A stretch of DNA of 64,000 bases, taken from an uncultured Gemmatimonadales bacterium. GTDB lineage: Bacteria; Gemmatimonadota; Gemmatimonadetes; Longimicrobiales; Longimicrobiaceae. The position numbers were made by a program, and so were the translations under genes. This document shows, piece after piece, positions 44,198 to 64,000 of the stretch (the stretch's first letter is position 1; each line of letters starts with the position of its first letter). The stretch lies in NCBI GenBank assembly GCA_963716255.1, contig OY970303.1, positions 224,001 through 288,000 of the forward strand, in the 5' to 3' direction. Under the pieces are notes generated by a model. That model was not told the origin of the DNA. It did no database searches and saw only the letters and a list, made by a program, of their open reading frames with translations.

Positions 44198-44229
44198 CTG
44201 GTATGAAAGGATGAAAAGAGCTCGGGTTC

Positions 44230-44360
44230 GGGCGTGCCCCCGGCTTGCGCCGGGGTCGGGCTTCGGCTCCGTAGAGCAGCAAACAACGCTGCTCAACGGA
44301 GTCGAGCCCCCGCGAAACTGCCCGCGGGGTCTCGCCCCTTCGGGCCGAAATCCCTCACGC
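44230..44360 (+). repeat. Repeat family A copy 7
   Basis: Inner stem gagcagc/gctgctc. Confidence 0.95.
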
Positions 44361-45682: not shown

Positions 45683-47080
45683 ATGTCCCGCTCCGGAAGC
45701 GCCCTGCGGCTCCTCGGCCTCGCGGCGGCCCTCGTCCTCCTCGCGACCGCCCCCGGGTGCGCCGGCTCCGCGCTGCGCCCCGCGTCCGCCCCGGGCGGAG
45801 GCCCGGAAACGGCCGCCGACCGCGAGCGCGCCTTCTGGAACGCCGTGAGCGAGCTGGAGCTGGTGCGCGCCACCCGCATCGCCCCGGACGCCGAGCACGC
45901 CGAGTTCGCGCGCGGGATGCGGCTGGTGCTGGACGGGCGGATGGAGCAGGCAGAAGCGCGCTTCGAGCCGCTCGCAGGCGCCGCCACCAACTCGCTGGTG
46001 CGCGTGGCCTCGCGCATCGCCCTGTCCAGCGTCTTCGGCTACGGCGGGCGCTGGCAGGCGCTCCACGACCTGTCGGCCGGCCTGCCGCTGCGCGCCTCCT
46101 CCGCCGCGCGCGGGCGCGCCGGCATCGACGCCTGGTCCGCCGCCATGCGCATGGCCCCCGAGGCGCAGTACCGCATCTCCGCCGTCCCCGGCGCGCTCCC
46201 CTTCGACGTCACCGGCACCGGCACGCCGCTGGTCCCCGTGCACGTCAACGGCCGCGTCCGCTACTTCTGGCTGGACACCGGCACCAGCGTCACCCTGATC
46301 GCCTCCGACGTCGCCGCCGAGGCCGGGATGCGGCCGCTCACCGGCGACACCCTGGAGATCGTCACCACCGTGGGGCGCATCACCGCGCTCCCCGCCGTGG
46401 TCCAGGAGCTCCGGCTGGGTCCCCTGTTCGCCACCGGGCACGCCGCCGCCATCGTCCCCGCGCGCGAGCTGACCATCGTGGAGCGGATGGAGGGCGGGCT
46501 CCAGGAGCGGGTCAAGATCGACGGCGTCATCGGCATGGACCTGCTGCGGCAGCTCAACGTCATCATCGACTTCCCCACCGGCGTCGCCATCCTGGGGCGC
46601 CCCCGCGCCGACCCCGAGGGCCGGACGCGCCGCAACCTCTTCTGGCTGGGCTACCCCGTCGTCCGCGCCGAGGGGCCGCGCGGCACCACGCTGTACTTCG
46701 GGCTGGACACCGGGGCCGATTCCACCTTCGTCACCCGCAATCTGCTCCGCAAGCTCCCCAGCCGGCTCCTCGCGAAGCGCACCCGCTACCTGTCCGGCTT
46801 CGGCGGCGACACCACCGTCCGCACGCCCATCCTGTCCGGGCTCACGCTGCGCGCCGCGGGCAAGAGCTTCAACCTGCGCGACGTCACCGTGCACGACAAC
46901 CGGCGCCTCATGCTGTTCGAGCTGGACGGCATCCTGGCAGCCGACCTGGGCGCCGGGCACCGGGTGCGCATCGACATGACCAACGGCATCTTCGAGATCG
47001 GCACTCCCGTGAGCGATCCGCGCGCCCGGGAGCGCCGCGCCGCCGATCCCGTTTCGGGCGGGGTTTCCGATCCTTCCTAG
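45683..47080 (+). CDS. Lipoprotein with two retropepsin-like aspartyl protease domains
   Basis: FWLDTGT..DGVIGMD and FGLDTGA..DGIL; signal peptide ending APGC. Confidence 0.85.
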   Translation: MSRSGSALRLLGLAAALVLLATAPGCAGSALRPASAPGGGPETAADRERAFWNAVSELELVRATRIAPDAEHAEFARGMRLVLDGRMEQAEARFEPLAGAATNSLVRVASRIALSSVFGYGGRWQALHDLSAGLPLRASSAARGRAGIDAWSAAMRMAPEAQYRISAVPGALPFDVTGTGTPLVPVHVNGRVRYFWLDTGTSVTLIASDVAAEAGMRPLTGDTLEIVTTVGRITALPAVVQELRLGPLFATGHAAAIVPARELTIVERMEGGLQERVKIDGVIGMDLLRQLNVIIDFPTGVAILGRPRADPEGRTRRNLFWLGYPVVRAEGPRGTTLYFGLDTGADSTFVTRNLLRKLPSRLLAKRTRYLSGFGGDTTVRTPILSGLTLRAAGKSFNLRDVTVHDNRRLMLFELDGILAADLGAGHRVRIDMTNGIFEIGTPVSDPRARERRAADPVSGGVSDPS

Positions 47081-47117
47081 TTTTCTTACGGATTACGGCA
47101 CGGATTGCGGCGGGTTC

Positions 47118-47246
47118 GGGCGTGCCCCCGGCTGGCGCCGGGGTCGGGCTTCGGCTCCGTAACGCACGAAACAACCGTGCGTAACGGAGTCGAGCCCGCG
47201 CAAACAGCCCCGCGGTCTCGCCCCTTCGGGCCGAAATCCCTCACGC
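47118..47246 (+). repeat. Repeat family A copy 8
   Basis: Inner stem acgcacg/cgtgcgt. Confidence 0.95.
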
Positions 47247-48504: not shown

Positions 48505-51762
<3,258 letters not shown>

Positions 51763-52169: not shown

Positions 52170-52709
52170 GTGACGGACGCAGAAGGAGCGGGAGCGGGCG
52201 AGGCCGTGGACGTGGATGCCTACGAGCGCGAGATGATGGGCCGGTTCGATGCCGAGATGTCGGCGATGACGGAGCAGGGACGCCGCTTCCAGCAGCAGTT
52301 CGACGCCATGATGGCGGCGTGGCAGCCCGTCCCGCCGCAGATGTTCTCGCAGTACGCGGATGGGCTGGAGCGCTGGATCGCGCACCACCGAAACGGGGCA
52401 GGCCCCGCGGCCGAGTGGCTGGAGCGCGCGGGACGCCCCGCGCTGGGCCAGCGCCTGGCGGCCGTGGTCGACGACCTGGGCAAGGCGGTCGCGGGGTACC
52501 GTCAGATGGCCGGACAGCAGGTGGCGCACATGAACGGCCTCGGCCAGATCCAGACCAACATGTACAGCCAGCAGCTGGCGGGCCAGCAGGAGATCGGCCA
52601 GATCCGGGCCGGCACGAACCGGGAGATCAACGAGATGTGGGCGGCGGGCCAGGCCGAGAGGACGGCGTCGTTCGAGCGGCAGAACGCCCTGTTCCGCCGC
52701 ACGCTCTGA
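52170..52709 (+). CDS. Hypothetical Gln/Met-rich helical protein
   Basis: GGAGG RBS before GTG; host-like codon usage. Confidence 0.65.
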   Translation: MTDAEGAGAGEAVDVDAYEREMMGRFDAEMSAMTEQGRRFQQQFDAMMAAWQPVPPQMFSQYADGLERWIAHHRNGAGPAAEWLERAGRPALGQRLAAVVDDLGKAVAGYRQMAGQQVAHMNGLGQIQTNMYSQQLAGQQEIGQIRAGTNREINEMWAAGQAERTASFERQNALFRRTL

Positions 52710-53262: not shown

Positions 53263-54279
53263 ATGCTCTGGCGCGCCGCGATGTGGGCCGAGGGATGGGG
53301 CGCCTGCATCACAGCGCTGACCTTCGAACAGCTCGCGCAGTCCGCTTTCCCCGCCAACGGATACTTCGCCTACGACGTCGGACGGCTCGCTCGGGTGCTC
53401 GCGGACTTCACGGCTGCCGAGAGCTGGCTCAAGTGGTCCGCGCGGCTTTCAAGACGGCAGAAAGCCTGGAAGGTGTACTTCCTTTCCCTGGCGGGCCTGG
53501 GAAACCTCTGCCGGCGAACCGGCAACTACCCGCTCGCGGTGCGCTTCCATCGCCTCTCGCTGCGGGTGGCGCGCATGCACGGGCTACGCACGCTCGAAGG
53601 TGACGCGCTCTACGACCTTGCGATCATGCACTTTGAGATGGAGCACGCCATTCTCGGAAGCGACTACGCCCGGCAGGCGTTGCAAGCGTACGGCGCAGGT
53701 CACGCACGGGTGATGCGATTAGCCCACGACGTGGCCCTTTTCTGGTTGGAAAGCGTGGGAGACTTCAAGAACGCCAAAGACACGTTTCAGGAACTGCTCC
53801 AGCACGTCTGGGAGCCGGCGGACCGCGTGGTCATCCTGGCGAACCTGGCTCGCGCCGCGGCAGGAATGGGAGACGAGTCGGTGTTCGAGGCCACCTGGAA
53901 CGAGACCTGGGCACTTCTACGGAGGCAGGAAGCGCGAGAAGGGCATGCTGCGGCGCTTATCCAGATTGCGCACGGTGCAGCGAGCTTCGGGTACTGGTCT
54001 CGGGTCGAGATCGCAGCCTTCGAAGCACTTGGAGTTGCTCGCGAACGCAGAGAGAGCATGCACATCATCATGGCCGAACAGATGCTCGATACCGCGCGGG
54101 CTGGAATCATGTCCGACGATGATGTGCAGCGGGTATTCCCCGATTACCGCTGGACTGATAGAGCAGACGTGGACGAGAACGCCGCGGAATTGGTCGCGAG
54201 CTTCGTGAACGCGATGAGGGTGCGCCGCGACGGAGCACCGGAGGGCCCCTCGCGCACCCTCATCACGGGTCGTAGCTAG
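53263..54279 (+). CDS. TPR-like helical repeat protein (paralog 1), possibly 5'-truncated
   Basis: LAGLGNL..TGNYPLA..F..SL.VA TPR pattern; aligns with the protein at 63406-64000. Confidence 0.85.
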   Translation: MLWRAAMWAEGWGACITALTFEQLAQSAFPANGYFAYDVGRLARVLADFTAAESWLKWSARLSRRQKAWKVYFLSLAGLGNLCRRTGNYPLAVRFHRLSLRVARMHGLRTLEGDALYDLAIMHFEMEHAILGSDYARQALQAYGAGHARVMRLAHDVALFWLESVGDFKNAKDTFQELLQHVWEPADRVVILANLARAAAGMGDESVFEATWNETWALLRRQEAREGHAAALIQIAHGAASFGYWSRVEIAAFEALGVARERRESMHIIMAEQMLDTARAGIMSDDDVQRVFPDYRWTDRADVDENAAELVASFVNAMRVRRDGAPEGPSRTLITGRS

Positions 54280-54484
54280 TTGCCCGTACCGAGGTAACCG
54301 GTTCCGCGCTGGGTAACCGTCAGGGTGTCACCTCCCGTGCTGCCGTCCTTGTTGCCGGTCCCGAAGTAGCCGGTCCCGTCCCGCAGGACGGTGGCGCTGC
54401 CCGGATCTACCGGGGAGCTGCGTTGTCCGAGCAGGCGGCGAGGGTCGCGGCGGCGAGGGTGAGGAGGATACGGGTCGTACGCAT
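54276..54484 (-). CDS. Secreted peptide precursor with two GTGY[FL]GTGN cores; 1-nt frameshift at ~54412
   Basis: MRTTRILLTLAAATLAACSDNAAP / PVDPGSATVLRDGTGYFGTGNKDGSTGGDTLTVTQRGTGYLGTGN*; GGAG RBS; stop overlaps the TPR stop in CTAG. Confidence 0.75.
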
Positions 54485-54747
54485 GGCATGCTCTCCATCG
54501 TGGAGTGAGACGAGCGAGCCGGAGACCACCTCCGGCCCGGGCTCAAACCTAGCGCGCCCACGGCCCCGCTCCCATGTCCACGTGGATCGTTCGTATACCG
54601 GCCATCGAACATCGCTCGACGGGTGCACGCCGCCCCGATCCTCCAGATTGCTTGTACATCCCCCGCGTCCCGGATAGCTTGCGAGTGAGCCAGATGTGTC
54701 CGCGGCACGACTCCCGGAGACCGCGGCCCACCCGCACCCCACCGCCC

Positions 54748-55167
54748 ATGCGCCCGCTCTCCCTCGTGCTCGTCCCCGCCCTGGCGCTCGCCGCCGCCTG
54801 CGCCCCGGCCACCAGCGCCGACCCGTCCGCCGGCGCCGGGACCGAGAACCGCAGGTCGGACTTCAACGCCCTGTCCCGGCAGGAGATCGCGGAGTCGGAC
54901 GCCGGCACCGCGTACGACCTGGTCCGTGCCCGCCGCCCCCGCTGGCTGAGCTCGGGCCTCGCCACCGCGTCCCGGAATTCCAGCCGGGACCCCGTGGTCG
55001 TGTACGTGAACCGGACACGGATGGGCGGCCCCGACGCGCTCCGCACCATCTCGGCGTCGGGCGTGGGCTCCATGCGCTTCTATGAGCCCACCTCCGCCAA
55101 CCTGGAGTTCGGGAACGGCCACCTCGGCGGCGTCATCCAGGTGACCCCCATCAGCAGCGGGCAGTAG
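54748..55167 (+). CDS. Small lipoprotein resembling a stand-alone TonB-receptor plug domain
   Basis: Lipobox AAAC; LSRQEI..AYDLV..RPRWL; VVYVN; FG.GH.GGVIQVT. Confidence 0.75.
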   Translation: MRPLSLVLVPALALAAACAPATSADPSAGAGTENRRSDFNALSRQEIAESDAGTAYDLVRARRPRWLSSGLATASRNSSRDPVVVYVNRTRMGGPDALRTISASGVGSMRFYEPTSANLEFGNGHLGGVIQVTPISSGQ

Positions 55168-55211
55168 AATCCTCGCCCGCAGCCCGTCCGGGAAGGCAGG
55201 CGCACGCGCAC

Positions 55212-55240
55212 GAGGGGGAGGCCACGCGGCCTCCCCCTCG
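55212..55240 (+). terminator. GC hairpin, possible terminator
   Basis: gagggggaggcc/ggcctccccctc; a similar hairpin lies at 57371-57397. Confidence 0.5.
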
Positions 55241-55338
55241 CTGCGTCGCCTCCCCGCCCGCCGGAAATCTGGCGCGGGACGCCGCCCGCCCGCATGTTTG
55301 TGGCCCATCCTCTGCCATCCGCCCCCGGAAACCATCCC

Positions 55339-56997
55339 ATGAGCGACCAATCCCTCGTCGCGGCCGCCGGGCCGCCGCTCCCCGACGCGACCCCGCCCGC
55401 CGGCCTCCCCGAGCCCGCCGCGCGGTCCCGCGCCTCCCACGGCCCGCTCGGCGGCATCGGCCTGGCGCTCTCGGGCGGCGGCTACCGCGCCGCAGGCTTC
55501 CACCTGGGCGTGCTGCGGCTGCTGGACGGCGTGGGGCTGCTGGGCGACGTGGTGGCGCTCTCCACCGTTTCCGGCGGCACCCTGTTCGGCGCCGCGTGGG
55601 TGCGGAGCCTGCTGGACGGGCGGAGCTTCGCCGAGTTCGACGCCGGCTTCTCCGCCTTCCTGAAGCGCACGAACGTCGTCCGGCTGGCGCTCGACGGCCT
55701 GGAGTCCCACCGCCCGCACGGTCGGCCCTCCTCCCCCAGCCTGATCCGCTCCGCCGCCGCCGTGTACGCCGCGCCGGAGTTCCTGGGCGACCGCCTCCTG
55801 GGCGAGGTGCTGGACAGCCCCACCCTTCCGCTGGAAGAGGTGATCTTCAACAGCACCGAGTTCCACACCGGCGTGGACTTCCGCTTCCGCCGCAGCGCCA
55901 ACCCCGCGGCGCTGATCGGCAACGGCAACTTCCCCCTCCCGCGCGAGGTCGCCGCCCGCGTCCGCCTGGCCGACGTGGCCGCCGCGTCGTCGTGCTTCCC
56001 CAGCGCCTTCGAGCCGTTCGTCTTCCCGCAGCAGTTCCGCTGGCCGGACGACTTCCCCCTGCCGCGGGTGGAGGCCGCGCTCGCGCAGTCGGCCACCCGG
56101 CCCGGGATGTGGGACGGCGGGCTGCCGCTGATGGACGGCGGCATCTACGACAACCAGGGGATCGGCAGCCTGCTCCTCTCGTACCGCGAGGCGGCGGCCC
56201 CGCCCCTGCTCCTGGTGTGCGACACCAGCCCGCCCGAGCCCGACCTGTACACCGAGCCCGCCGCCGGCCACCGCGGGCGGCTCACGCTGCGCGGCGCCCG
56301 CCTGCTGGCGTGGCTGGTGTTCGCGGCGGCGGTGGCGTCGCTGGTGGCCGTGGGCACGTCCGCGGCGCGCGACCCGGACCGCCTGAGCCTGCGCGGGGCG
56401 CTGGTGTACGGCATTCCCATGCTGTTCGCGGGGGTCGTCGCCGGGGGGATGGTCTGGATGCGCGGGCTGGTGCTCCAGGTGGGGCACCTCCTCAAGACCA
56501 AGGTGCAGGTGCGGGACGCGTGGAAGGACCTCCAGCGGCTCACCGTGCGGGAGGCGGTGCGGATGCTGGAGCTGCGCGTGACCTCGCTGGTGGCGCTGAC
56601 CTCCAGCATCTTCATGAAGCGCGTCCGCGGCCTGGTGTACGGCGCCGCCTACGCCGACGAGACCTTCAAGGACCGCCTGGCGCCCGCGCTCGTGTATTCG
56701 CTGGAGCGCGAGTCGAGCCTCTTCGCCACCCACCCGTGGCTGCGGCCGGGGCCGGCGCTGCGCACGCTGGCCGGGCGGGCGTGCCAGGTCCCCACCGCGC
56801 TCTGGCTCACCGACGACCACGGCGACTCCGGCGAGGCCGAGCTGAAGACGCTGGCCGACACCGGCCACGCCACCGCCTGCTTCGCGCTGCTCAAGTACGT
56901 GCTGCGCGACGCCGACGGGCGGTTGGCGGCCGGAGATCCCGGGCGGACCGAGCTGCTGGAGCGCCTGCGTCGCGTGTGGGACGGAATCAACCGCTGA
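55339..56997 (+). CDS. Patatin-like phospholipase with TM segments
   Basis: LALSGGGYRA, STVSGG nucleophile motif, ASSCFP, DGGIYDN. Confidence 0.9.
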   Translation: MSDQSLVAAAGPPLPDATPPAGLPEPAARSRASHGPLGGIGLALSGGGYRAAGFHLGVLRLLDGVGLLGDVVALSTVSGGTLFGAAWVRSLLDGRSFAEFDAGFSAFLKRTNVVRLALDGLESHRPHGRPSSPSLIRSAAAVYAAPEFLGDRLLGEVLDSPTLPLEEVIFNSTEFHTGVDFRFRRSANPAALIGNGNFPLPREVAARVRLADVAAASSCFPSAFEPFVFPQQFRWPDDFPLPRVEAALAQSATRPGMWDGGLPLMDGGIYDNQGIGSLLLSYREAAAPPLLLVCDTSPPEPDLYTEPAAGHRGRLTLRGARLLAWLVFAAAVASLVAVGTSAARDPDRLSLRGALVYGIPMLFAGVVAGGMVWMRGLVLQVGHLLKTKVQVRDAWKDLQRLTVREAVRMLELRVTSLVALTSSIFMKRVRGLVYGAAYADETFKDRLAPALVYSLERESSLFATHPWLRPGPALRTLAGRACQVPTALWLTDDHGDSGEAELKTLADTGHATACFALLKYVLRDADGRLAAGDPGRTELLERLRRVWDGINR

Positions 56998-57020
56998 TTC
57001 TGGATGGAACAGAACGCTTC

Positions 57021-57149
57021 GGGCGTGCCCCCGGCTGGCGCCGGGGTCGGGCTTCGGCTCCGTAGGGCTGCAAACAACGCAGCCCAACGGAGTCGAGCCC
57101 CGCGAAACTGCCCGCGGGTCTCGCCCCTTCGGGCCGGAATCCCTCACGC
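57021..57149 (+). repeat. Repeat family A copy 9 (family C hairpin follows at 57156-57200)
   Basis: Inner stem gggctgc/gcagccc. Confidence 0.95.
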
Positions 57150-57417
57150 GAGAGGCCCCCTCCCCCCGGCCCCCTCCCCCGCAAGCGGGAGAGGGGGAGG
57201 ACGGCAGGAGGGCCGCAGCGAGGGGGTGGGGGTGGTCGGAGGAAAGAGTTGGGGGGGTGGCCGGGTGGGGTGGCATTAACTCTTTCCGGAGAGCGCCCCC
57301 GCGCCCGACCACTCGCTGGGAACTCCAGCATTTCATCCCCTCTGGGTGGGGCCCGTACAACGGCAGACGAAGGGGGAGGCCCGGTCGGCCTCCCCCTTCG
57401 CCGCAGTCAGCCGCCCG

Positions 57418-59502
57418 TCACATCCGCACCACCCCCACCCGCTGCGCGCCCTCCAGGTACTGCATCACCGCCTCCGGCGTCACGGTCCCGTAGTAGTGGC
57501 TCCCGGCCTCGCGGGCCTCGGCGGCGACCTCGCGGTACACCTCCAGCCCGGTGCGCCGGCCGTCCACGAAGCTCAGCACCTCGTGCGACATCAGGCCGTG
57601 CAGGGCGGGGACGCTGGGGATCTGGCCCCGCTTCTCCAGGAACTCCCTGGGGCCGGCGGCGAGCGCGGGACGCACCGCAGCGAGGCGGCGCTCCACGTCG
57701 GAGAGCGGCGCGGCGGAGGGGGCGCCGCGCCCGGCCACCAGGCGGTACCTGAGGGCGAGCTCGCGCAGCGCCTGCGCCTCCTGCCGGTCCAGCTCCGCCA
57801 GCAGCGGGCCCGACATGCGGCGCCCCTCCGGGGAGATCCCCGCCAGCGAGCCCAGCGCCCGCCGCTCGCGCCGCGCCGCGTAGCGCACCTGCTCGACCGC
57901 GCGGCCGTACGCCGCGGCGCGGTCCTCCGTCCCGGCCACGGCGATCCACGACATTCCCAGCCCCAGGTTGCGCGCCAGCCGCTGGGCGCCCCGCCCCGCC
58001 GTTTCGGCGGCGAGCACCGGCGCCGAACGGTCGTCCGCCGAGGCCATGGCGTAGGCGATCATCGCCACGGCGGCGGCGTTCCGGCCCAGCTGGGTGCGGT
58101 CGATGTTCCACAGGTCGTCGTCCGACGTGTGGATGAAGTGGTCCGGCATGTTGGTGAAGGTGACCGCCGGGACGCCGATGGGCGCCTCGTTGAACGGCAT
58201 GTGGTCGGTGTTGTTGTGGAACCAGATGGAGCGGGCGTTGTAGCGGTGGCGCGTTCCCAGCCGGGCGAAGTGCGGGTTGGGGTAGAGCGGGATCCCGTTC
58301 TGCTGCTGGGCCAGGTCGAAGTTGTTGGCCGCTACCATGTAGTCCACCACCGCCTCGGTGACGTCGTTGAGGAAGTGGAAGCGCGCCGCGGGAACGCGCG
58401 TCACGTTCTGCGTCCGCATCACGTCCTGCGCCTGGTTCGCCCCCACCATGTCCTGGTTGACGTTCACCCACATGCGCCGGTGGGCCTCCGGGTCGTCGGC
58501 GAAGAACTGGCGCTGGCTGCTGATCTCCGTCAGCCACCAGAAGCGGATGTCGCGGCGAGGCCGGGGGAGCGTGCCGTCCGCGATCAGCTTGTTCAGCGCC
58601 CGCGCGATCTCGGTGATGCTGGCGATGCCGCTCCCGTCGTCGTTCGCCGAGGGCTTGCTCTCCTGCAGGTGCGCGGTGAGCATCACGTCCTGCGCGATTC
58701 CCGGCTCGCTCCCGCGGATGAAGCCCTCCACCATCACCTGCCAGGGCTCCTCGCCCTCGCGCGAGGTGAACTCGGCGTCCACCTGCGCGCGCACCCGCAC
58801 GGGCTCCCGCGCCGCCGCGAGGCGCTGCCGCAGCGCCTGTCCCTGCCGCAGCGTGAGGATGAACGCGAACGTCGACGGCGTTCCGCTCGCCGTCTGCAGC
58901 GGGAGCGTGGACCAGTTCACCTGGTCCGGGTACGACAGGTTGCGGTCCACGGCCGGGTTGGGCGACCACACCACGCCCGCGGCGCCGCGCTTGGCCACCG
59001 CTTCGTTCATCACCGCCCCCAGCCCCCCGTGCGCCAGAACCACCTTGCCGGCCACGTCGCGCCCGGCGTAGTCGGCTTCGCGCGTGCCGTCGCCCACGTC
59101 CACCAGCTCGGCCGTGACGTCGGCGCGGCGCGAGTTGTCCGCCAGGTGCAGCGGGGTCTGGAGGATGCTGGCCAGCCGCTCCGGCGCGCTCCCGGCGATC
59201 CACAGCTCCGCCGACTTCGCGTTCCACGGCACCGTCGTGGACGGCTGCTTGATGATCCGCACGTCGGCCAGTCCGGCGGCGCGCGCCTGCTGCTCGAAGT
59301 AGCGCGCCACCTCCCACAGCCCGTCGGAGCCGCCGCGCGGCTTGTGGTACGCGGTGTGGAAGCGGATGTGCTCGTAGGCGGCGTCGCCGGACACCTCCTG
59401 CGAGATGGCCCGCACGTGCTCGGGGCGGAGGACGGGGAGGTCCTGGGCGGCGAGCCCCTGCGCGCCGAGGACGAGGAAGAGCGCGGCGAGTCTCCGTTTC
59501 AT
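57418..59502 (-). CDS. Secreted M28 family peptidase with PA domain
   Basis: Signal peptide; ELVDVGDG..DY..DVAGKVVL; AHL, ANDDGSG, EIS, NQDMVG, DH, HTSDD. Confidence 0.88.
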   Translation of the reverse strand: MKRRLAALFLVLGAQGLAAQDLPVLRPEHVRAISQEVSGDAAYEHIRFHTAYHKPRGGSDGLWEVARYFEQQARAAGLADVRIIKQPSTTVPWNAKSAELWIAGSAPERLASILQTPLHLADNSRRADVTAELVDVGDGTREADYAGRDVAGKVVLAHGGLGAVMNEAVAKRGAAGVVWSPNPAVDRNLSYPDQVNWSTLPLQTASGTPSTFAFILTLRQGQALRQRLAAAREPVRVRAQVDAEFTSREGEEPWQVMVEGFIRGSEPGIAQDVMLTAHLQESKPSANDDGSGIASITEIARALNKLIADGTLPRPRRDIRFWWLTEISSQRQFFADDPEAHRRMWVNVNQDMVGANQAQDVMRTQNVTRVPAARFHFLNDVTEAVVDYMVAANNFDLAQQQNGIPLYPNPHFARLGTRHRYNARSIWFHNNTDHMPFNEAPIGVPAVTFTNMPDHFIHTSDDDLWNIDRTQLGRNAAAVAMIAYAMASADDRSAPVLAAETAGRGAQRLARNLGLGMSWIAVAGTEDRAAAYGRAVEQVRYAARRERRALGSLAGISPEGRRMSGPLLAELDRQEAQALRELALRYRLVAGRGAPSAAPLSDVERRLAAVRPALAAGPREFLEKRGQIPSVPALHGLMSHEVLSFVDGRRTGLEVYREVAAEAREAGSHYYGTVTPEAVMQYLEGAQRVGVVRM

Positions 59503-59605
59503 CTGGGGATTTCCGTGGGTGGGGGTGCCAGGGATGGGCCGGCCTGCGGACGTCAATATACCGCGGGGCCGCGGTGCGGACAGGAGCGGCGGCGGGCGGC
59601 GCGGA

Positions 59606-62005
59606 TCAGCGCGCGGGGGCGAGCCCCACGCGCCGGACCAGGTCCTGGAAGAGGGGATCGGCGCGGAGCGGGTCGAGCATGGGCTCCACGTTGAGGTAGA
59701 CCATTGCGCCGGAGCGGTTGCGGTACGCCTCCTCCAGCGCGCGCAGCGCCGCCTCGTTCTCGCCCAGCCCCAGGTGCACCAGCGCCCGGTACTCGGCGGG
59801 GACGTAGCGCGTGCGGGCCGCCTCGTCGAGCGCGTGGAGAGCCTGCCGCGCCCCTTCGCGGTCGCCCGCGGCGCCCCGGGCGTGCCCCAGCAGGGCCACC
59901 ACCACGGGCTGCGGGCCGCCCAGCACGAGGAGGGCGCGCCGATACTCCGCGGCGGCGGCCGCGTGCTCGCCGGTCTGCTCCAGGGCGGCACCCAGGCCGA
60001 GGAGCGCCGTGACGAAGCCGGAGTCGGTGGCGAGGACGCGGCGGTACTCGGCGATCGAGCGCGCGTAGTGGCGGGTGTAGTAGAGGTGGCGAGCCATGGC
60101 GGTGCCCATCACCGTGGAGAGCGGGTCCAGCTCCCGGGCCCGGCTGATGGCGGCCAGCGACTCCCCGGGCCGCCCCGTCGCCACCAGGAACAGCGAGTAC
60201 CAGTGGTGCGCGGTCGCGTAGCCGGGGCTCAGCTCCAGCGCGCGCCGGAACTCCCGCTCCGCGGCATCCCAGCTCCACTCGTAGTTGAGGAGGACGTTGG
60301 CGAGCGCGGTGTGGGCCTCGCCGAGGGTGGGGTCCAGCTCCAGCGCGCGTCCGGCCGCGGCGCGGGCGCGCGGGTAGGCGCTGTCCGGGGGGAGGAGTCC
60401 GTAGTCGAAGGCGCCCAGCACGTTGTACACGTCGGCGATCCCCACGTGCACCAGCGGGTAGCGGGGGTCGCGCTCCGCCGCCGCGGTGAAGCTGGCGAGC
60501 GCCCGCCCCAGTCCCTGGGGCGAGCGCTGGAACCAGGCGAAGCGCCCCTGCAGGTACAGGTCGTACGCCACCGGGTCCACCGCCGGGCGGGCGCCCCGCG
60601 GCGCCCGCCCGCCGTGGACCAGCTCGTCGCGGAGCTCGCGGGCCACGGCGCGCGAGATCTCGTCCTGCACCGCCAGCACGTCGCCCATCCGCCGGTCGAA
60701 GCGCTCGGACCAGACCGGGGTGCCGTCGCGCGCGCGGACCAGCCGCACGCTCACCCGCAGCCGGTCCCCGGCCTCGCGAACGCTCCCCTCCAGCACGTAG
60801 GCCACGCCCAGCTGCTCCCCCACCTCGCGGGTCCCCACCGCCCGCCCCTTGAAGGCGAACGCCGAGGTGCGCGCCACCACACTCAGCCCGTCCACGCGGG
60901 TCAGCGCGCCGATGATCTCGTCGGCGAGCCCGTCCGTGAAGTACTCGTTGACCCGCCCCCGGCTGTCGTCGGCGAAGGGGAGGACCGCGACGCTCGCCGC
61001 GGCCGGGGCCGTGGGCGGCGGCGCGGCGGGGCCCCGCACCGACCACCAGGCGCCGAGCGCGAGCGCCGCGGCGGCCGCCGCGGCGAGCGCCGGGAACGTG
61101 GCGAGGGCCAGCCTGCGGTGCCGCAGCAGGCGCCGGGGCGCGCGCTGCGCGGCGGGCGGGAGCGGGGGCGCCGGCACCGGCACCGGGCCGGGGGGAGCGG
61201 CCTCCGCGTCCGCACGAACCACGGGGCGCGGGGGCGCGGCGGCCGCTTGGTCGGGAGGGCCGGCCGGGCCGGGGACCGCGGCAGCTGCCGAAGGGGGCTC
61301 GCGCAGCTCCCGCTCCAGGGCCGCCACCCCGGCGTCGGGCTCCACCCCCAGCTCCTCGCGCAGGAGCGCGGCGTACGTCCGGGCGTGCTGGAGGGCGCCC
61401 GCGCGGTCACCGGCCGCGGCCAGCACACGCATCAGGCGCGCAGTCACCCGCGAGGAGTACGGGTCGTGCGCCGCCAGCCGCTTCCACCACCCCGCAGCCT
61501 CCCGCCCATCCCCCCGCTCCTCCGCCTCCCCCGCCAGCGCCTCCAGCGCGCCCGCATACGCCGTCGCGAGCCGCTCCCTCTCCGCCTCGGACCAGCGCTC
61601 GAACTCCGCCGCGCCGGGCAGCGAGAAGCCGTCCAGGAACGGCCCGGCGTACAGCTCGGCCGCCCGGGCCGGGTCTCCCCGCGCCAGCGCGTCCTCGAAC
61701 TCGCCCACGTCCGAGCCGACGAGGGACGCGGTCAGCCGCAGCTCGTCGCCGGAGGTGACCAGCGCCTCGCTGCCCAGCACCTGGCGCAGGGAGTGGACGG
61801 CCACGTTCAGGGTGTGGCGGCCGCGGTCCGCCCCGCTCTCCGGCCACAGCAGCGCGAGCAGCCTTTCGCGGGGGACGGAGCCGGTGCGGGAGGCGGCGAG
61901 CAGGGCGAGAAGGGCGAGGCGGTGGCGCTGCGAGGCCGGCCCCGCGAGCGGGAGGTCGCCGCGAAGGAGGGACGCGCCGCCGAAGAGCCTCACGTGGAAT
62001 GACAT
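59606..62005 (-). CDS. SARP-type regulator (wHTH + BTAD) with TM, TolB-like and TPR domains
   Basis: LALLALLA..RERLLALLWPE; LYAGPFLDGF..EFERW..ERERL; SVAVLPF..YFTDGLADEII; AHHWYS TPRs. Confidence 0.9.
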   Translation of the reverse strand: MSFHVRLFGGASLLRGDLPLAGPASQRHRLALLALLAASRTGSVPRERLLALLWPESGADRGRHTLNVAVHSLRQVLGSEALVTSGDELRLTASLVGSDVGEFEDALARGDPARAAELYAGPFLDGFSLPGAAEFERWSEAERERLATAYAGALEALAGEAEERGDGREAAGWWKRLAAHDPYSSRVTARLMRVLAAAGDRAGALQHARTYAALLREELGVEPDAGVAALERELREPPSAAAAVPGPAGPPDQAAAAPPRPVVRADAEAAPPGPVPVPAPPLPPAAQRAPRRLLRHRRLALATFPALAAAAAAALALGAWWSVRGPAAPPPTAPAAASVAVLPFADDSRGRVNEYFTDGLADEIIGALTRVDGLSVVARTSAFAFKGRAVGTREVGEQLGVAYVLEGSVREAGDRLRVSVRLVRARDGTPVWSERFDRRMGDVLAVQDEISRAVARELRDELVHGGRAPRGARPAVDPVAYDLYLQGRFAWFQRSPQGLGRALASFTAAAERDPRYPLVHVGIADVYNVLGAFDYGLLPPDSAYPRARAAAGRALELDPTLGEAHTALANVLLNYEWSWDAAEREFRRALELSPGYATAHHWYSLFLVATGRPGESLAAISRARELDPLSTVMGTAMARHLYYTRHYARSIAEYRRVLATDSGFVTALLGLGAALEQTGEHAAAAAEYRRALLVLGGPQPVVVALLGHARGAAGDREGARQALHALDEAARTRYVPAEYRALVHLGLGENEAALRALEEAYRNRSGAMVYLNVEPMLDPLRADPLFQDLVRRVGLAPAR

Positions 62006-62012
62006 ACCGCCA

Positions 62013-62053
62013 TTGACCGAAAATTGACCCGGGCGGAACCGAAAATTGACCCG
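62013..62053. promoter_or_regulatory. Phased direct repeats, putative SARP binding site
   Basis: TTGACC at 62013, 62024 and 62046; perfect 16-mer accgaaaattgacccg at 62016 and 62038. Confidence 0.7.
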
Positions 62054-62162
62054 TCGGGCGCAAGTTACCCGCACGTCCGGGCAGGAACAAGGCGAATGCT
62101 CACGCCCGGAACGGCGCCCGTATTCCGCGGGTGCGGCTCACCGGAGACAGGAGGGTAGCGAG

Positions 62163-62591
62163 ATGATCAACCTGCACGAAGGGTCGGAGCCGTGGCGCTT
62201 CGGGTCCAAGCACGTCGTACAGTCCCGCACGGCGGACAACGAATACCTCTACACCATCACGGGCGTCGTCATCATGGACATGAAGGGGATGGGGCCGGCA
62301 TGGCGGAGGGACCGCGTCCATCTCTCGATCCTGTTCCCCGGCGCCATCCCGGCCGGGCGGAGGCTGCGTCTCGTGCAGTGGGCGACCCTGATCACGCCCA
62401 GCGCGATCGCGAACGACCACGCGGCCGAGAACGCCGGCTGGGCGGTCGACAGCTTCGGGGGGCCCGACGGTTCGCTCTACATCTCCCCGGGCGGGTACTT
62501 CACCCTGTGGGCCGACGTCGCCGTCCGCGACATCGACGGCTGGCTCTACAGGCTCGCCTACAGCGTGACGCTGAAGTTCGTGCTGGGTTAG
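62163..62591 (+). CDS. Hypothetical beta-rich protein
   Basis: GGAGG RBS; host-like codon usage; divergent from the SARP gene. Confidence 0.75.
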   Translation: MINLHEGSEPWRFGSKHVVQSRTADNEYLYTITGVVIMDMKGMGPAWRRDRVHLSILFPGAIPAGRRLRLVQWATLITPSAIANDHAAENAGWAVDSFGGPDGSLYISPGGYFTLWADVAVRDIDGWLYRLAYSVTLKFVLG

Positions 62592-62661
62592 CCTCCTCGT
62601 CCGCGGGCGAGCCCGGCAAAGGCCGGCCACCCGCTCCACACCTCTCCTGAAGGAGACAGCC

Positions 62662-63009
62662 ATGTCCTACATCTGCATCCCCCCGTCCGGCACGGGGCGG
62701 GATTGCTTCTTCGTTCCGGTCCACATCCGGAGGTGGAAAGACCTGTTCCCGCCGGAGCCTCCTTTCCTGCGGCTCCTCCAGCCCGTCCGCATCGCACTGA
62801 TCGAGATCCTCGTGGGCCCGCGTCCGCACCCGTGGCGCGAAGCCGGCGTACGGATCGCGCCCGAGGTGGAGCGTGACCTCGCCACGCTCTCGTCGATGCA
62901 CTCGCTCTCCGAAGACCTCAGCCTCGATCTCCGGGAGGCCGTGCGGGAAACCCTCCGGAGCGCGTTCCGGAGCATCCCCCTACCGGAGGGAGTGTCGGTA
63001 CAGCCCTGA
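62662..63009 (+). CDS. Hypothetical protein
   Basis: AAGGAG RBS; CIPP..DCF, GPRPHPW. Confidence 0.65.
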   Translation: MSYICIPPSGTGRDCFFVPVHIRRWKDLFPPEPPFLRLLQPVRIALIEILVGPRPHPWREAGVRIAPEVERDLATLSSMHSLSEDLSLDLREAVRETLRSAFRSIPLPEGVSVQP

Positions 63010-63233
63010 AGGCTGGGCCACTCGTCTCGCGGCTTTCGCGGCTCTTCAACACACGAGCGGCCGTTCCCGGCGACTGGAACGGCCGCTCAACCGTTGGGAC
63101 GCGGAAGACGGCCTCGCGTCGGGAACGATGTGGCCGATGGAACCACCGTCCACATGGCGGCAAAACCTCCCACGATTATCTTGCTACCGGCACGGAGCAA
63201 GCCGTGCACCATTCCCCCAACGGAGGTGGCAAG

Positions 63234-63362
63234 ATGAAAGCTCGTATCCTGCTCGTACTTCTCTCCGCTTGTCTCGTTGGCGCGTGTTCCACCAGCGCCA
63301 CCCCGACCTCACCTCCGGATCCATCCAAGGAGAGCAGTCCGGTGATTGGATCCGGGCACTGA
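63234..63362 (+). CDS. Secreted peptide precursor, 42 aa; not in ORF track
   Basis: GGAGG RBS at 63222; MKARILLVLLSACLVGACSTSATPTSPPDPSKESSPVIGSGH*. Confidence 0.8.
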   Translation: MKARILLVLLSACLVGACSTSATPTSPPDPSKESSPVIGSGH

Positions 63363-63405
63363 CGGTACCCTCGCCAGAGCGAACGGGACCGCGAGCGGTC
63401 GCGAA

Positions 63406-64000
63406 CTAGCCGACCTGAGCGATCGCCCGCGGTCCCCGAAGTACCTCGACGAACCGGGTAGCGAGACGGACGGAAGCCGTGGAGGCGACTCCACGGGGTC
63501 CCGCGATCTGTCCATCGCCCTGGAGTGCCGAGACCAGTGATCCGGCCTGCTCGGCCACCTTTTGCTGCTTCCGCTCGACTGCGAACTCCAATGCTTTTCG
63601 AGCGGCCCGCTCCGCGCGCTTGAGCTCGCCCATGTACGCCGCGCCATACGCAAGGTCGAGAAGCACGCCCGGCGCATTGGATTCCACGCTCTTTCCCCAG
63701 AGAAGTGTCCACGCCTCGGACCAGGCCTGCTCGAACACATAGGGAGCATCCGCTCCTCCGGCTGCACGAGCGACGTCCGCCAGCACGAGAAGGCGGAGAG
63801 GCAGAGAGGCGACCAGGGGCAGCACGGCACTGGCAACCGCGAGCGCTTCCCCGAAGCGCCCGGAGAGAGTCCAGTTGTACGCCACGTCCAGAGCCAGGTT
63901 GAGGAGCGCGGGGCTTGTCGCGGGATATGCGGAAAGTGCCGCCTCCGCGTACTCCTCCGCTTTGGAACCGTTGCCACACTCGATTTCGATCCCGAACAGG
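63406..64000 (-). CDS. TPR-like helical repeat protein (paralog 2), 5' part beyond the window
   Basis: Frame open to the window edge: [54 protein letters not shown]. Confidence 0.85.
   Translation of the reverse strand, partial: LFGIEIECGNGSKAEEYAEAALSAYPATSPALLNLALDVAYNWTLSGRFGEALAVASAVLPLVASLPLRLLVLADVARAAGGADAPYVFEQAWSEAWTLLWGKSVESNAPGVLLDLAYGAAYMGELKRAERAARKALEFAVERKQQKVAEQAGSLVSALQGDGQIAGPRGVASTASVRLATRFVEVLRGPRAIAQVG

Follow-up and report, generated by a model that had tools for sequence, protein, structure and literature searches.

According to PMC10075063, intracellular peptide signalling is described for Bacillota, whereas other well-studied phyla are described as using small molecules made by enzymes. 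The known system closest to the one described here is Rap-Phr of Bacillus (RapF/RapH-ComA, RapH-Spo0F, RapLS20 and phage Rap3T/Rap105). We analysed a stretch of 64,000 nucleotides (the window; contig positions 224001-288000 of OY970303.1) in the 8.42 Mb, 73% GC genome of an uncultured Gemmatimonadales bacterium of the family Longimicrobiaceae (the source genome, G000). A first-pass annotation had proposed that the window holds, twice, a tetratricopeptide repeat (TPR) protein encoded tail-to-tail with a tiny secreted precursor, the pair being a receptor-pheromone family. The proposal is partly supported, by the enrichment of the gene pair, the conservation of peptide cores at the protein level and a Rap-like receptor fold, but it missed a third gene, which encodes an AraC-type regulator.

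Receptor, lipopeptide and AraC-type genes across Gemmatimonadota

The pairing of TPR and lipopeptide genes is far above chance. The two TPR proteins of the window are indeed paralogs (38.6% identity over 259 amino acids, E 5e-34, all four quoted motif pairs being present), and a hidden Markov model search of the source genome recovered 34 paralogous open reading frames (ORFs) above 300 bits, the next scores being 231 and 117. A convergent ORF with a lipobox lies beside 28 of these 34, against 12 of 600 sampled control genes. When the small lipoprotein ORF must also carry the core G-[STG]-G-x, the counts are 26 of 34 and 0 of 600, which is the enrichment that the first-pass annotation had offered as its genomic test; the core motif was tuned on these data, the membership of the TPR family was not. 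Seen in reverse, small lipoprotein ORFs with the motif are beside a family gene in 25 of 47 cases, and those without it in 6 of 203. Lipobox leaders were called throughout by a rule of our own, not by SignalP. At one locus (L016, G000 4505947-4508950), a distance of 1.2 kb separates the precursor gene and its TPR gene, and transposase-looking ORFs, which may be an insertion sequence, lie between the two.

The receptor was found in all 71 Longimicrobiaceae genomes searched, many of which have from 10 to at least 24 matches. A profile of 20 distant relatives, homologous to the Longimicrobiaceae TPR by profile comparison (E 6e-34), matches 140 of the 301 genomes of the phylum, and most other Gemmatimonadota have one or two matches among the at most five candidates scored per genome. 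A convergent lipopeptide gene was present at all of the first 21 distant loci, at 69 of the 70 examined later (40 of these were newly fetched and gave 39) and at 28 of 37 further Longimicrobiaceae loci; after de-duplication, 73 of the 74 loci outside the family have one, with different cores. One C-terminally incomplete hit was dropped from the distant-locus count and three contig-edge loci from the family-locus count. Two genomes marked as unpublished (G097, G182) contribute one locus each to the locus counts, the genome-search tallies include up to four such genomes, and our conclusions stand independently of them. The homologs found carry the taxon labels Longimicrobiaceae, Gemmatimonadales or Gemmatimonadota. 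The range of the TPR family beyond the phylum was viewed through language-model neighbours. A viral-contig scan with a single paralog as query gave no relative, and a metagenome scan gave at least one locus.

The third gene is a recurrent ORF of about 280 codons, located on the far side of the peptide gene and divergently oriented to it, and all three genes are present at 69 of the 74 de-duplicated loci outside Longimicrobiaceae. Its product scores above the HTH_18 cut-off in all eight cases tested, shows the double helix-turn-helix (HTH) feature of AraC/XylS proteins and is modelled as a receiver plus an AraC domain (predicted local distance difference test score, pLDDT, 95.2). The DNA-binding domain has AdpA as its best match (3w6v, E 3e-22), and the N-terminus matches 4dad/4dn6 and NtrC receivers. 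Canonical receivers have an acid pocket, a phosphorylated Asp and a Lys. In the partner, the Asp of beta-3 is kept in 89 of 108 sequences, His or Ala replace the acids of beta-1, and there is no Lys after beta-5, which departs from a canonical phosphorylated response regulator. No kinase gene is recurrent near the cassette.

Outside Longimicrobiaceae, the spacer between the peptide and AraC genes carries a 12-base direct repeat with a period of 21 bases, mostly placed 70-90 bases upstream of where the peptide gene starts and in many cases reaching the AraC start (lag-21 repeat score of 9.45 against 6.41 in shuffled sequences, 69 spacers). A direct repeat of 21 bp is the usual operator spacing of AraC-type regulators. 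With the established logic of such regulators, the position of the repeat suggests that the partner activates the peptide gene and regulates itself. In Longimicrobiaceae, 11 of 42 promoters without AraC and 3 of 26 AraC-linked ones have single half-sites that exceed the 95% level of shuffled sequences, locus 2 of the window being borderline.

Judging from gene content, the TPR-peptide pair has multiplied in Longimicrobiaceae, mostly without its AraC gene. The source genome has 34 TPR copies against 12 full-length AraC copies, of which seven are in triads, two directly behind peptide-less TPR genes and three apart. Among 104 Longimicrobiaceae loci, a set that over-samples one peptide-less TPR-AraC clade, 67 have a peptide gene, 52 an AraC gene, 26 both and 11 neither. 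Many channels, including those of the window, where no AraC gene adjoins either locus, would therefore converge in trans on fewer regulators.

The 86 family precursors have 40-140 amino acids (median 70), and their cores differ in type by lineage: Gly-rich G[ST]G[NH] cores, tandem 7-8-mers with up to six repeats, and Cys-x7-Cys loops. The G[ST]G[NH] ending first proposed as the hallmark of the family is mainly a Longimicrobiaceae feature, many cores elsewhere being different. Internal repeats were compared in 19 precursors, selected for at least 6/8 identical residues. Of 152 codon pairs, 75 show a synonymous difference and 7 a change of amino acid, so the core copies must be old and yet held at the protein level. 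In 34 of 53 terminal cores, an Arg or Lys is found 9-11 residues ahead of the end, and 25 of 55 internal cores are followed by one, against a background of 5% in both cases. In 145 of 195 Longimicrobiaceae pairs, conservation is higher in the core than in the linker. The richest locus seen (L022, G000 5657035-5661310) has two tandem TPR genes, and the three precursor genes that they face encode about 12 core copies in all.

For the receptor, TPR2 was modelled (71 sequences, pLDDT 90.8). The model is helical throughout, a bundle of helices at the N-terminus (37-54, 67-77 and 82-95) being followed by a TPR superhelix. We found no HTH in it, its N-terminus being modelled as long helices, nor an HTH family in the 32 members scanned; the receptor fold is thus predicted to lack an HTH, and that of the partner to be a receiver without part of its phosphorylation pocket. 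TPR2 matches TPR_12 with 31.8 bits (cut-off 30.1), as do 30 of the 32 members; generic TPR families were matched, and no model named after Rap, NprR, PlcR, Rgg or AimR was listed for any of the 32. The top structural matches are generic TPRs and LGN, and the best bacterial ones are RapI (Z 19.2, root mean square deviation (rmsd) 5.7, 290 aligned), RapH (Z 18.7), RapF-ComA (Z 18.7, rmsd 7.8, 317 aligned, from residue 38) and NprR. As to fusions of TPR and AraC, none of nine longer or multi-hit homologs scanned has an HTH; these are TPR extensions, one with DUF932 and one without a family match. Receptors of 700-880 amino acids (P0023, P0031, P0044-P0047, P0050), several of which match the profile in two stretches, suggest duplicated TPR units.

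Arg, His and Asp are conserved across the phylum at predicted groove positions, which were assigned from the TPR register, not from coordinates (R152 in 78/82 and 74/74 sequences, D264 in 82/82 and 62/74). In both sets, similarity between cores follows the groove positions more closely than it follows random or convex columns, with partial r of 0.139 (1/40 controls as high) and 0.267 (0/40). We regard this covariation as weak support.

The two copies in the window

By comparison with orthologs, the window holds two copies of the cassette, one intact (locus 2) and one broken (locus 1). The shared architecture first claimed for both loci is preserved at locus 2, whereas locus 1 is damaged in both genes. 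Locus 2 comprises:

63406..64000, minus strand: 3' part of the TPR2 gene, which continues to window-equivalent position 64677 (G000 288677) and encodes 423 amino acids
63234..63362, plus strand: lipopeptide precursor gene 2, intact, 42 amino acids, from the sequence and orthologs
63330..63359, plus strand: C-terminal core ESSPVIGSGH of precursor 2, read from the sequence
63155..63182, plus strand: inferred promoter-like site of precursor 2 (TGGCGG, 16 bases, TATCTT)

Precursor 2 has a ribosome-binding site (RBS) at 63222-63226, a lipobox Cys at position 18, a Ser/Pro/Thr linker and a single C-terminal core. Compared with its ortholog in G213, the last nine codons carry four synonymous and no non-synonymous changes, and the linker six amino-acid changes in 15. 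A convergent precursor accompanies TPR2 in all four orthologs found in the genus, and the promoter-like -10 is kept in 4/4 of them. We considered the TGGCGG at this locus as an AdpA-like box and dropped it, as the orthologs retain just a -35-like hexamer there.

Locus 1 comprises:

53263..54279, plus strand: TPR1, an N-terminally truncated member of the receptor family with 338 amino acids, by homolog comparison
53271..53280, no strand: point at which ~768 bp are deleted relative to the syntenic ortholog of G213; a short repeated sequence lies there
54276..54484, minus strand: lipopeptide precursor gene 1, which by ortholog comparison is frameshifted in this assembly
54351..54380, minus strand: core copy 1 (..GTGYFGTGN), with R-D before and K after it, read from the sequence
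54276..54308, minus strand: core copy 2 (R-GTGYLGTGN, then the stop), read from the sequence
54546..54574, minus strand: inferred promoter-like site of precursor 1 (hexamer, 17 bases, TAnnnT-type -10)

Intact members of the TPR family have about 410-480 amino acids. TPR1 is 85% identical to the syntenic copy of G213, relative to which the loss of ~768 bp removes its upstream region and about 100 N-terminal codons; its start codon is therefore chimeric. This lesion and the frameshift of precursor gene 1 may each be real or an error of assembly; since it occurred at a short repeat, the loss of ~768 bp looks biological in origin. In precursor gene 1, whose stop codon overlaps that of TPR1, the leader frame runs from a start at 54484 to a stop at 54407-54409, and a different frame, which ends at 54276, encodes the cores, because one base is missing near 54412-54421 relative to the closest ortholog (G213). 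Three orthologs of the locus encode an intact 70-amino-acid precursor with two cores. The RBSs, basic-hydrophobic leaders, LAAC and VGAC lipoboxes and cores that had been reported for the small ORFs are all present, but leader and cores are in separate frames at locus 1. Moreover, YFGTGN and YLGTGN are two copies inside a single precursor; over nine codons these copies differ by four synonymous changes and one non-synonymous change.

Several neighbouring features were also recorded. A small lipoprotein-like ORF without a Pfam hit (54574-55167, plus strand) is divergent from peptide gene 1, and related DNA is present elsewhere in the genome. Upstream of peptide gene 2, and in the same orientation, are two ORFs without Pfam hits (62046-62591 and 62662-63009, plus strand), and a BTAD/SARP-like regulator with a C-terminal TPR region is encoded at 59606-62074 (minus strand). 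In a relative, L093, the TPR2 ortholog directly adjoins an M28 peptidase gene, and the 3.8 kb corresponding to 59584-63389 (peptide gene, the two ORFs and the BTAD-TPR gene) are absent. The neighbours patatin, M28 peptidase and BTAD-TPR were not recurrent among the listed neighbours of other TPR loci. Further away, a Gln/Met-rich ORF of 179 amino acids without a Pfam hit (52170-52709, plus strand) comes just after a carB-like gene (48505-51762, minus strand). An intergenic sequence of about 120 bases at 57020-57140 recurs, judging by similar translations, near 44200-44300 and near 47050-47200, and is probably a repeat of the REP (repetitive extragenic palindromic) type.

Proposed mechanism and its alternatives

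We consider it probable, though far from assured, that the TPR, lipopeptide and AraC genes form a signalling cassette resembling Rap-Phr, in which an exported lipopeptide is cut, re-imported and bound by the TPR protein, which switches the AraC regulator. The precursor would be exported by Sec and lipidated, and proteolysis, often at Arg or Lys, would free the cores, which number one to six, have 7-10 residues and are either linear or closed by a disulfide. An Opp/Dpp-type transporter would take up the core, which would then bind the concave groove of the TPR protein. Contact between TPR and AraC proteins would replace the input of a kinase, and the regulator would activate the peptide gene, giving rise to autoinduction. 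The three LspA and three Opp/Dpp-type binding proteins encoded by the source genome are compatible with such a route of export and uptake.

A number of observations weigh against this mechanism. The lipid anchor and the two membranes complicate both the release and the uptake of the peptide. LGN, a eukaryotic TPR protein, outscores Rap structurally (Z 23.6, rmsd 4.7, 309 aligned), so the receptor fold is that of a generic peptide-binding superhelix. We did not find the 21-bp periodicity in Longimicrobiaceae spacers. Outside this family, the tail is more conserved than the linker in just 35 of 122 pairs, although the definition of the core is crude there and tails diverge fast. Covariation has its own difficulties: the pairs are related rather than independent; for distant pairs within Longimicrobiaceae, the groove is tracked more closely by the signal peptide (0.123) than by the core (0.055); and outside this family the linker after the Cys tracks it as well (0.208). 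The anticipated covariation of receptor and peptide exceeds that of random columns and is partly shared by these controls. Finally, the TPR2 ortholog of L093 is 84% identical and has no peptide gene; in one conserved Longimicrobiaceae clade (G000 2613730-2616079, which is L007, and L064-L092) the TPR gene is directly followed by the AraC gene, without a peptide gene; and there are orphan peptide genes without a nearby TPR gene, four of five having no TPR remnant in the ranges searched. These three cases count against a strictly one-to-one pairing. Missing peptides and receptor-less precursors also occur in Rap-Phr. The peptide-less TPR-AraC clade retains the groove residues and is a candidate hub.

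The most serious alternative, which we nevertheless hold to be unlikely, is a cell-autonomous circuit made of the same three parts, where the peptide stays with its producer and serves as a timer or a monitor of the envelope, either by periplasmic release and re-uptake or because the precursor is retained when export or lipidation fails. The lipid anchor and the outer membrane would hold the peptide local, the unit is self-contained, and its low copy number in most other Gemmatimonadota (one or two matches, at most five candidates scored per genome) fits such a role. Yet, cores diversify between copies and species while the repeats within a precursor stay alike, and up to six tandem copies and 34 channels would fit the amplification and specificity of a signal better than a housekeeping monitor.

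It is less probable still that the peptide acts on the receiver-like domain of the AraC protein, or on a membrane sensor, with the TPR protein as a chaperone, sink or processing aid. Peptide and AraC genes have a common promoter region, and the N-terminal domains of AraC proteins are common binders of ligands. However, 41 of the 67 Longimicrobiaceae peptide loci have no AraC gene and the peptide still stays with the TPR gene, and no peptide-AraC pair without a TPR gene occurs among the loci examined, a one-sided sample since these were collected by their TPR genes. There are also peptide genes with no TPR gene nearby, and the groove covariation is modest.

Slightly behind comes a toxin-immunity pair, or one of the type of ribosomally made peptides that are modified after translation (RiPPs), where an antagonistic or lytic lipopeptide is neutralized or matured by the TPR protein. 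Repeated cores are reminiscent of RiPP precursors. A colicin lysis protein is the second language-model hit of the 42-amino-acid precursor, with a score of 0.89 that we take as a lead only, and there are weak matches to a PADLOC TPR model (8/32) and to the RiPP TPR protein HaaT (1/32). On the other hand, the recurrent neighbour is a transcription factor, and no modifying enzyme or exporter was recurrent within 3 kb of 34 loci, with neighbours read by eye. Receptor N-termini, also judged by eye, show no signal peptide, which sets the receptor apart from an exported toxin. The reading of the small ORFs as fortuitous frames of the opposite strand, at which the broken one of locus 1 might hint, is effectively refuted by the lack of any motif-bearing ORF beside the 600 control genes, the intact orthologs, the synonymous divergence and the RBSs.

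Comparison with described systems

The cassette is a real, phylum-wide module that appears to be undescribed in print; we found no publication on it in the literature searched, from which most subscription papers were absent. More tentatively, and with expectations just short of even, we propose that Gemmatimonadota have independently built a peptide language, with pheromones derived from lipoproteins, cytoplasmic TPR receptors, a kinase-free AraC regulator and an autoinducing loop, of which Longimicrobiaceae would have more than 30 channels per genome that are gained, swapped and lost, as at locus 1. If true, its presence across a diderm phylum would break the split between peptides in Bacillota and small molecules in other phyla. 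Also new would be the output, an AraC regulator that has a degenerate receiver and is controlled by the TPR protein, and the export route, which would pass through the processing of lipoproteins. The 1,684 receptor clusters at E <= 1e-30, counted by receptor alone, would then stand for a large natural library of matched peptide-receptor pairs, whose cores, receptors, regulator and operator are all readable from sequence and could be rebuilt in a laboratory host.

Set against the RRNPP(A) definition, the cassette shows several of the expected features. TPR2, with TPRs and 423 amino acids, falls within the 250-500 of the receptors, receptor and propeptide genes are adjacent, and the 42-amino-acid precursor of locus 2 is within the 10-100 of the propeptides (PMC10075063). 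Its lipobox leader, of the signal peptidase II (SPII) type by our own rule, would qualify as secreted at the relaxed level only, the strict level of the same source calling for the signal peptidase I (SPI) type. In RRNPP(A) systems the matured peptide is taken back into the cell and bound by the receptor, a step that is predicted here. The hosts differ, as RRNPP(A) systems belong to Bacillota or their mobile elements and the homologs found here to Gemmatimonadota; the RRNPP_detector tables are of Firmicutes scope by their own text.

Like NprR-NprX, PlcR-PapR, Rgg/ComR-SHP and AimR-AimP, the cassette sets an intracellular sensor of TPR fold beside a small peptide gene, and the predicted autoinduction resembles that of ComR-ComS and PlcR-PapR. 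NprR, PlcR, Rgg and AimR carry their own HTH (PMC9765709), N-terminal in this branch, to which PrgX also belongs, whereas here it sits in a separate AraC protein. The domains of this partner match AraC/XylS proteins (AdpA) and atypical receivers like those of CpaE/TadZ, with neither acid pair nor Lys, and the operator half-site resembles the AdpA consensus loosely only (PMC3372375). LGN/Pins, a eukaryotic scaffold that binds extended peptides in its groove, is the best structural match of the receptor, a likeness that shows fold, not kinship or function.

The parallels with Rap-Phr extend further. In both, the TPR receptor lacks an HTH and has a bundle of helices at its N-terminus (PMC9765709), cores occur as tandem repeats (PMC11343458), an exported propeptide is encoded next to the receptor, the likely target is a separate regulator, and a genome has many paralogs; the structures are alike at Z 17-19. 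In the Rap branch, the N-terminal bundle has three helices and makes contact with a response regulator. The cassette differs from Rap-Phr by its diderm phylum, its lipoprotein (SPII-type) precursor, its convergent layout and its linked AraC-type partner, which is dedicated to it and has an atypical receiver; identity to Rap is just 10-15%, and no Rap-specific model is matched. By analogy, we suggest that the cassette works like Rap-Phr and do not file it as a member, homology to a described RRNPP subfamily not being demonstrable.

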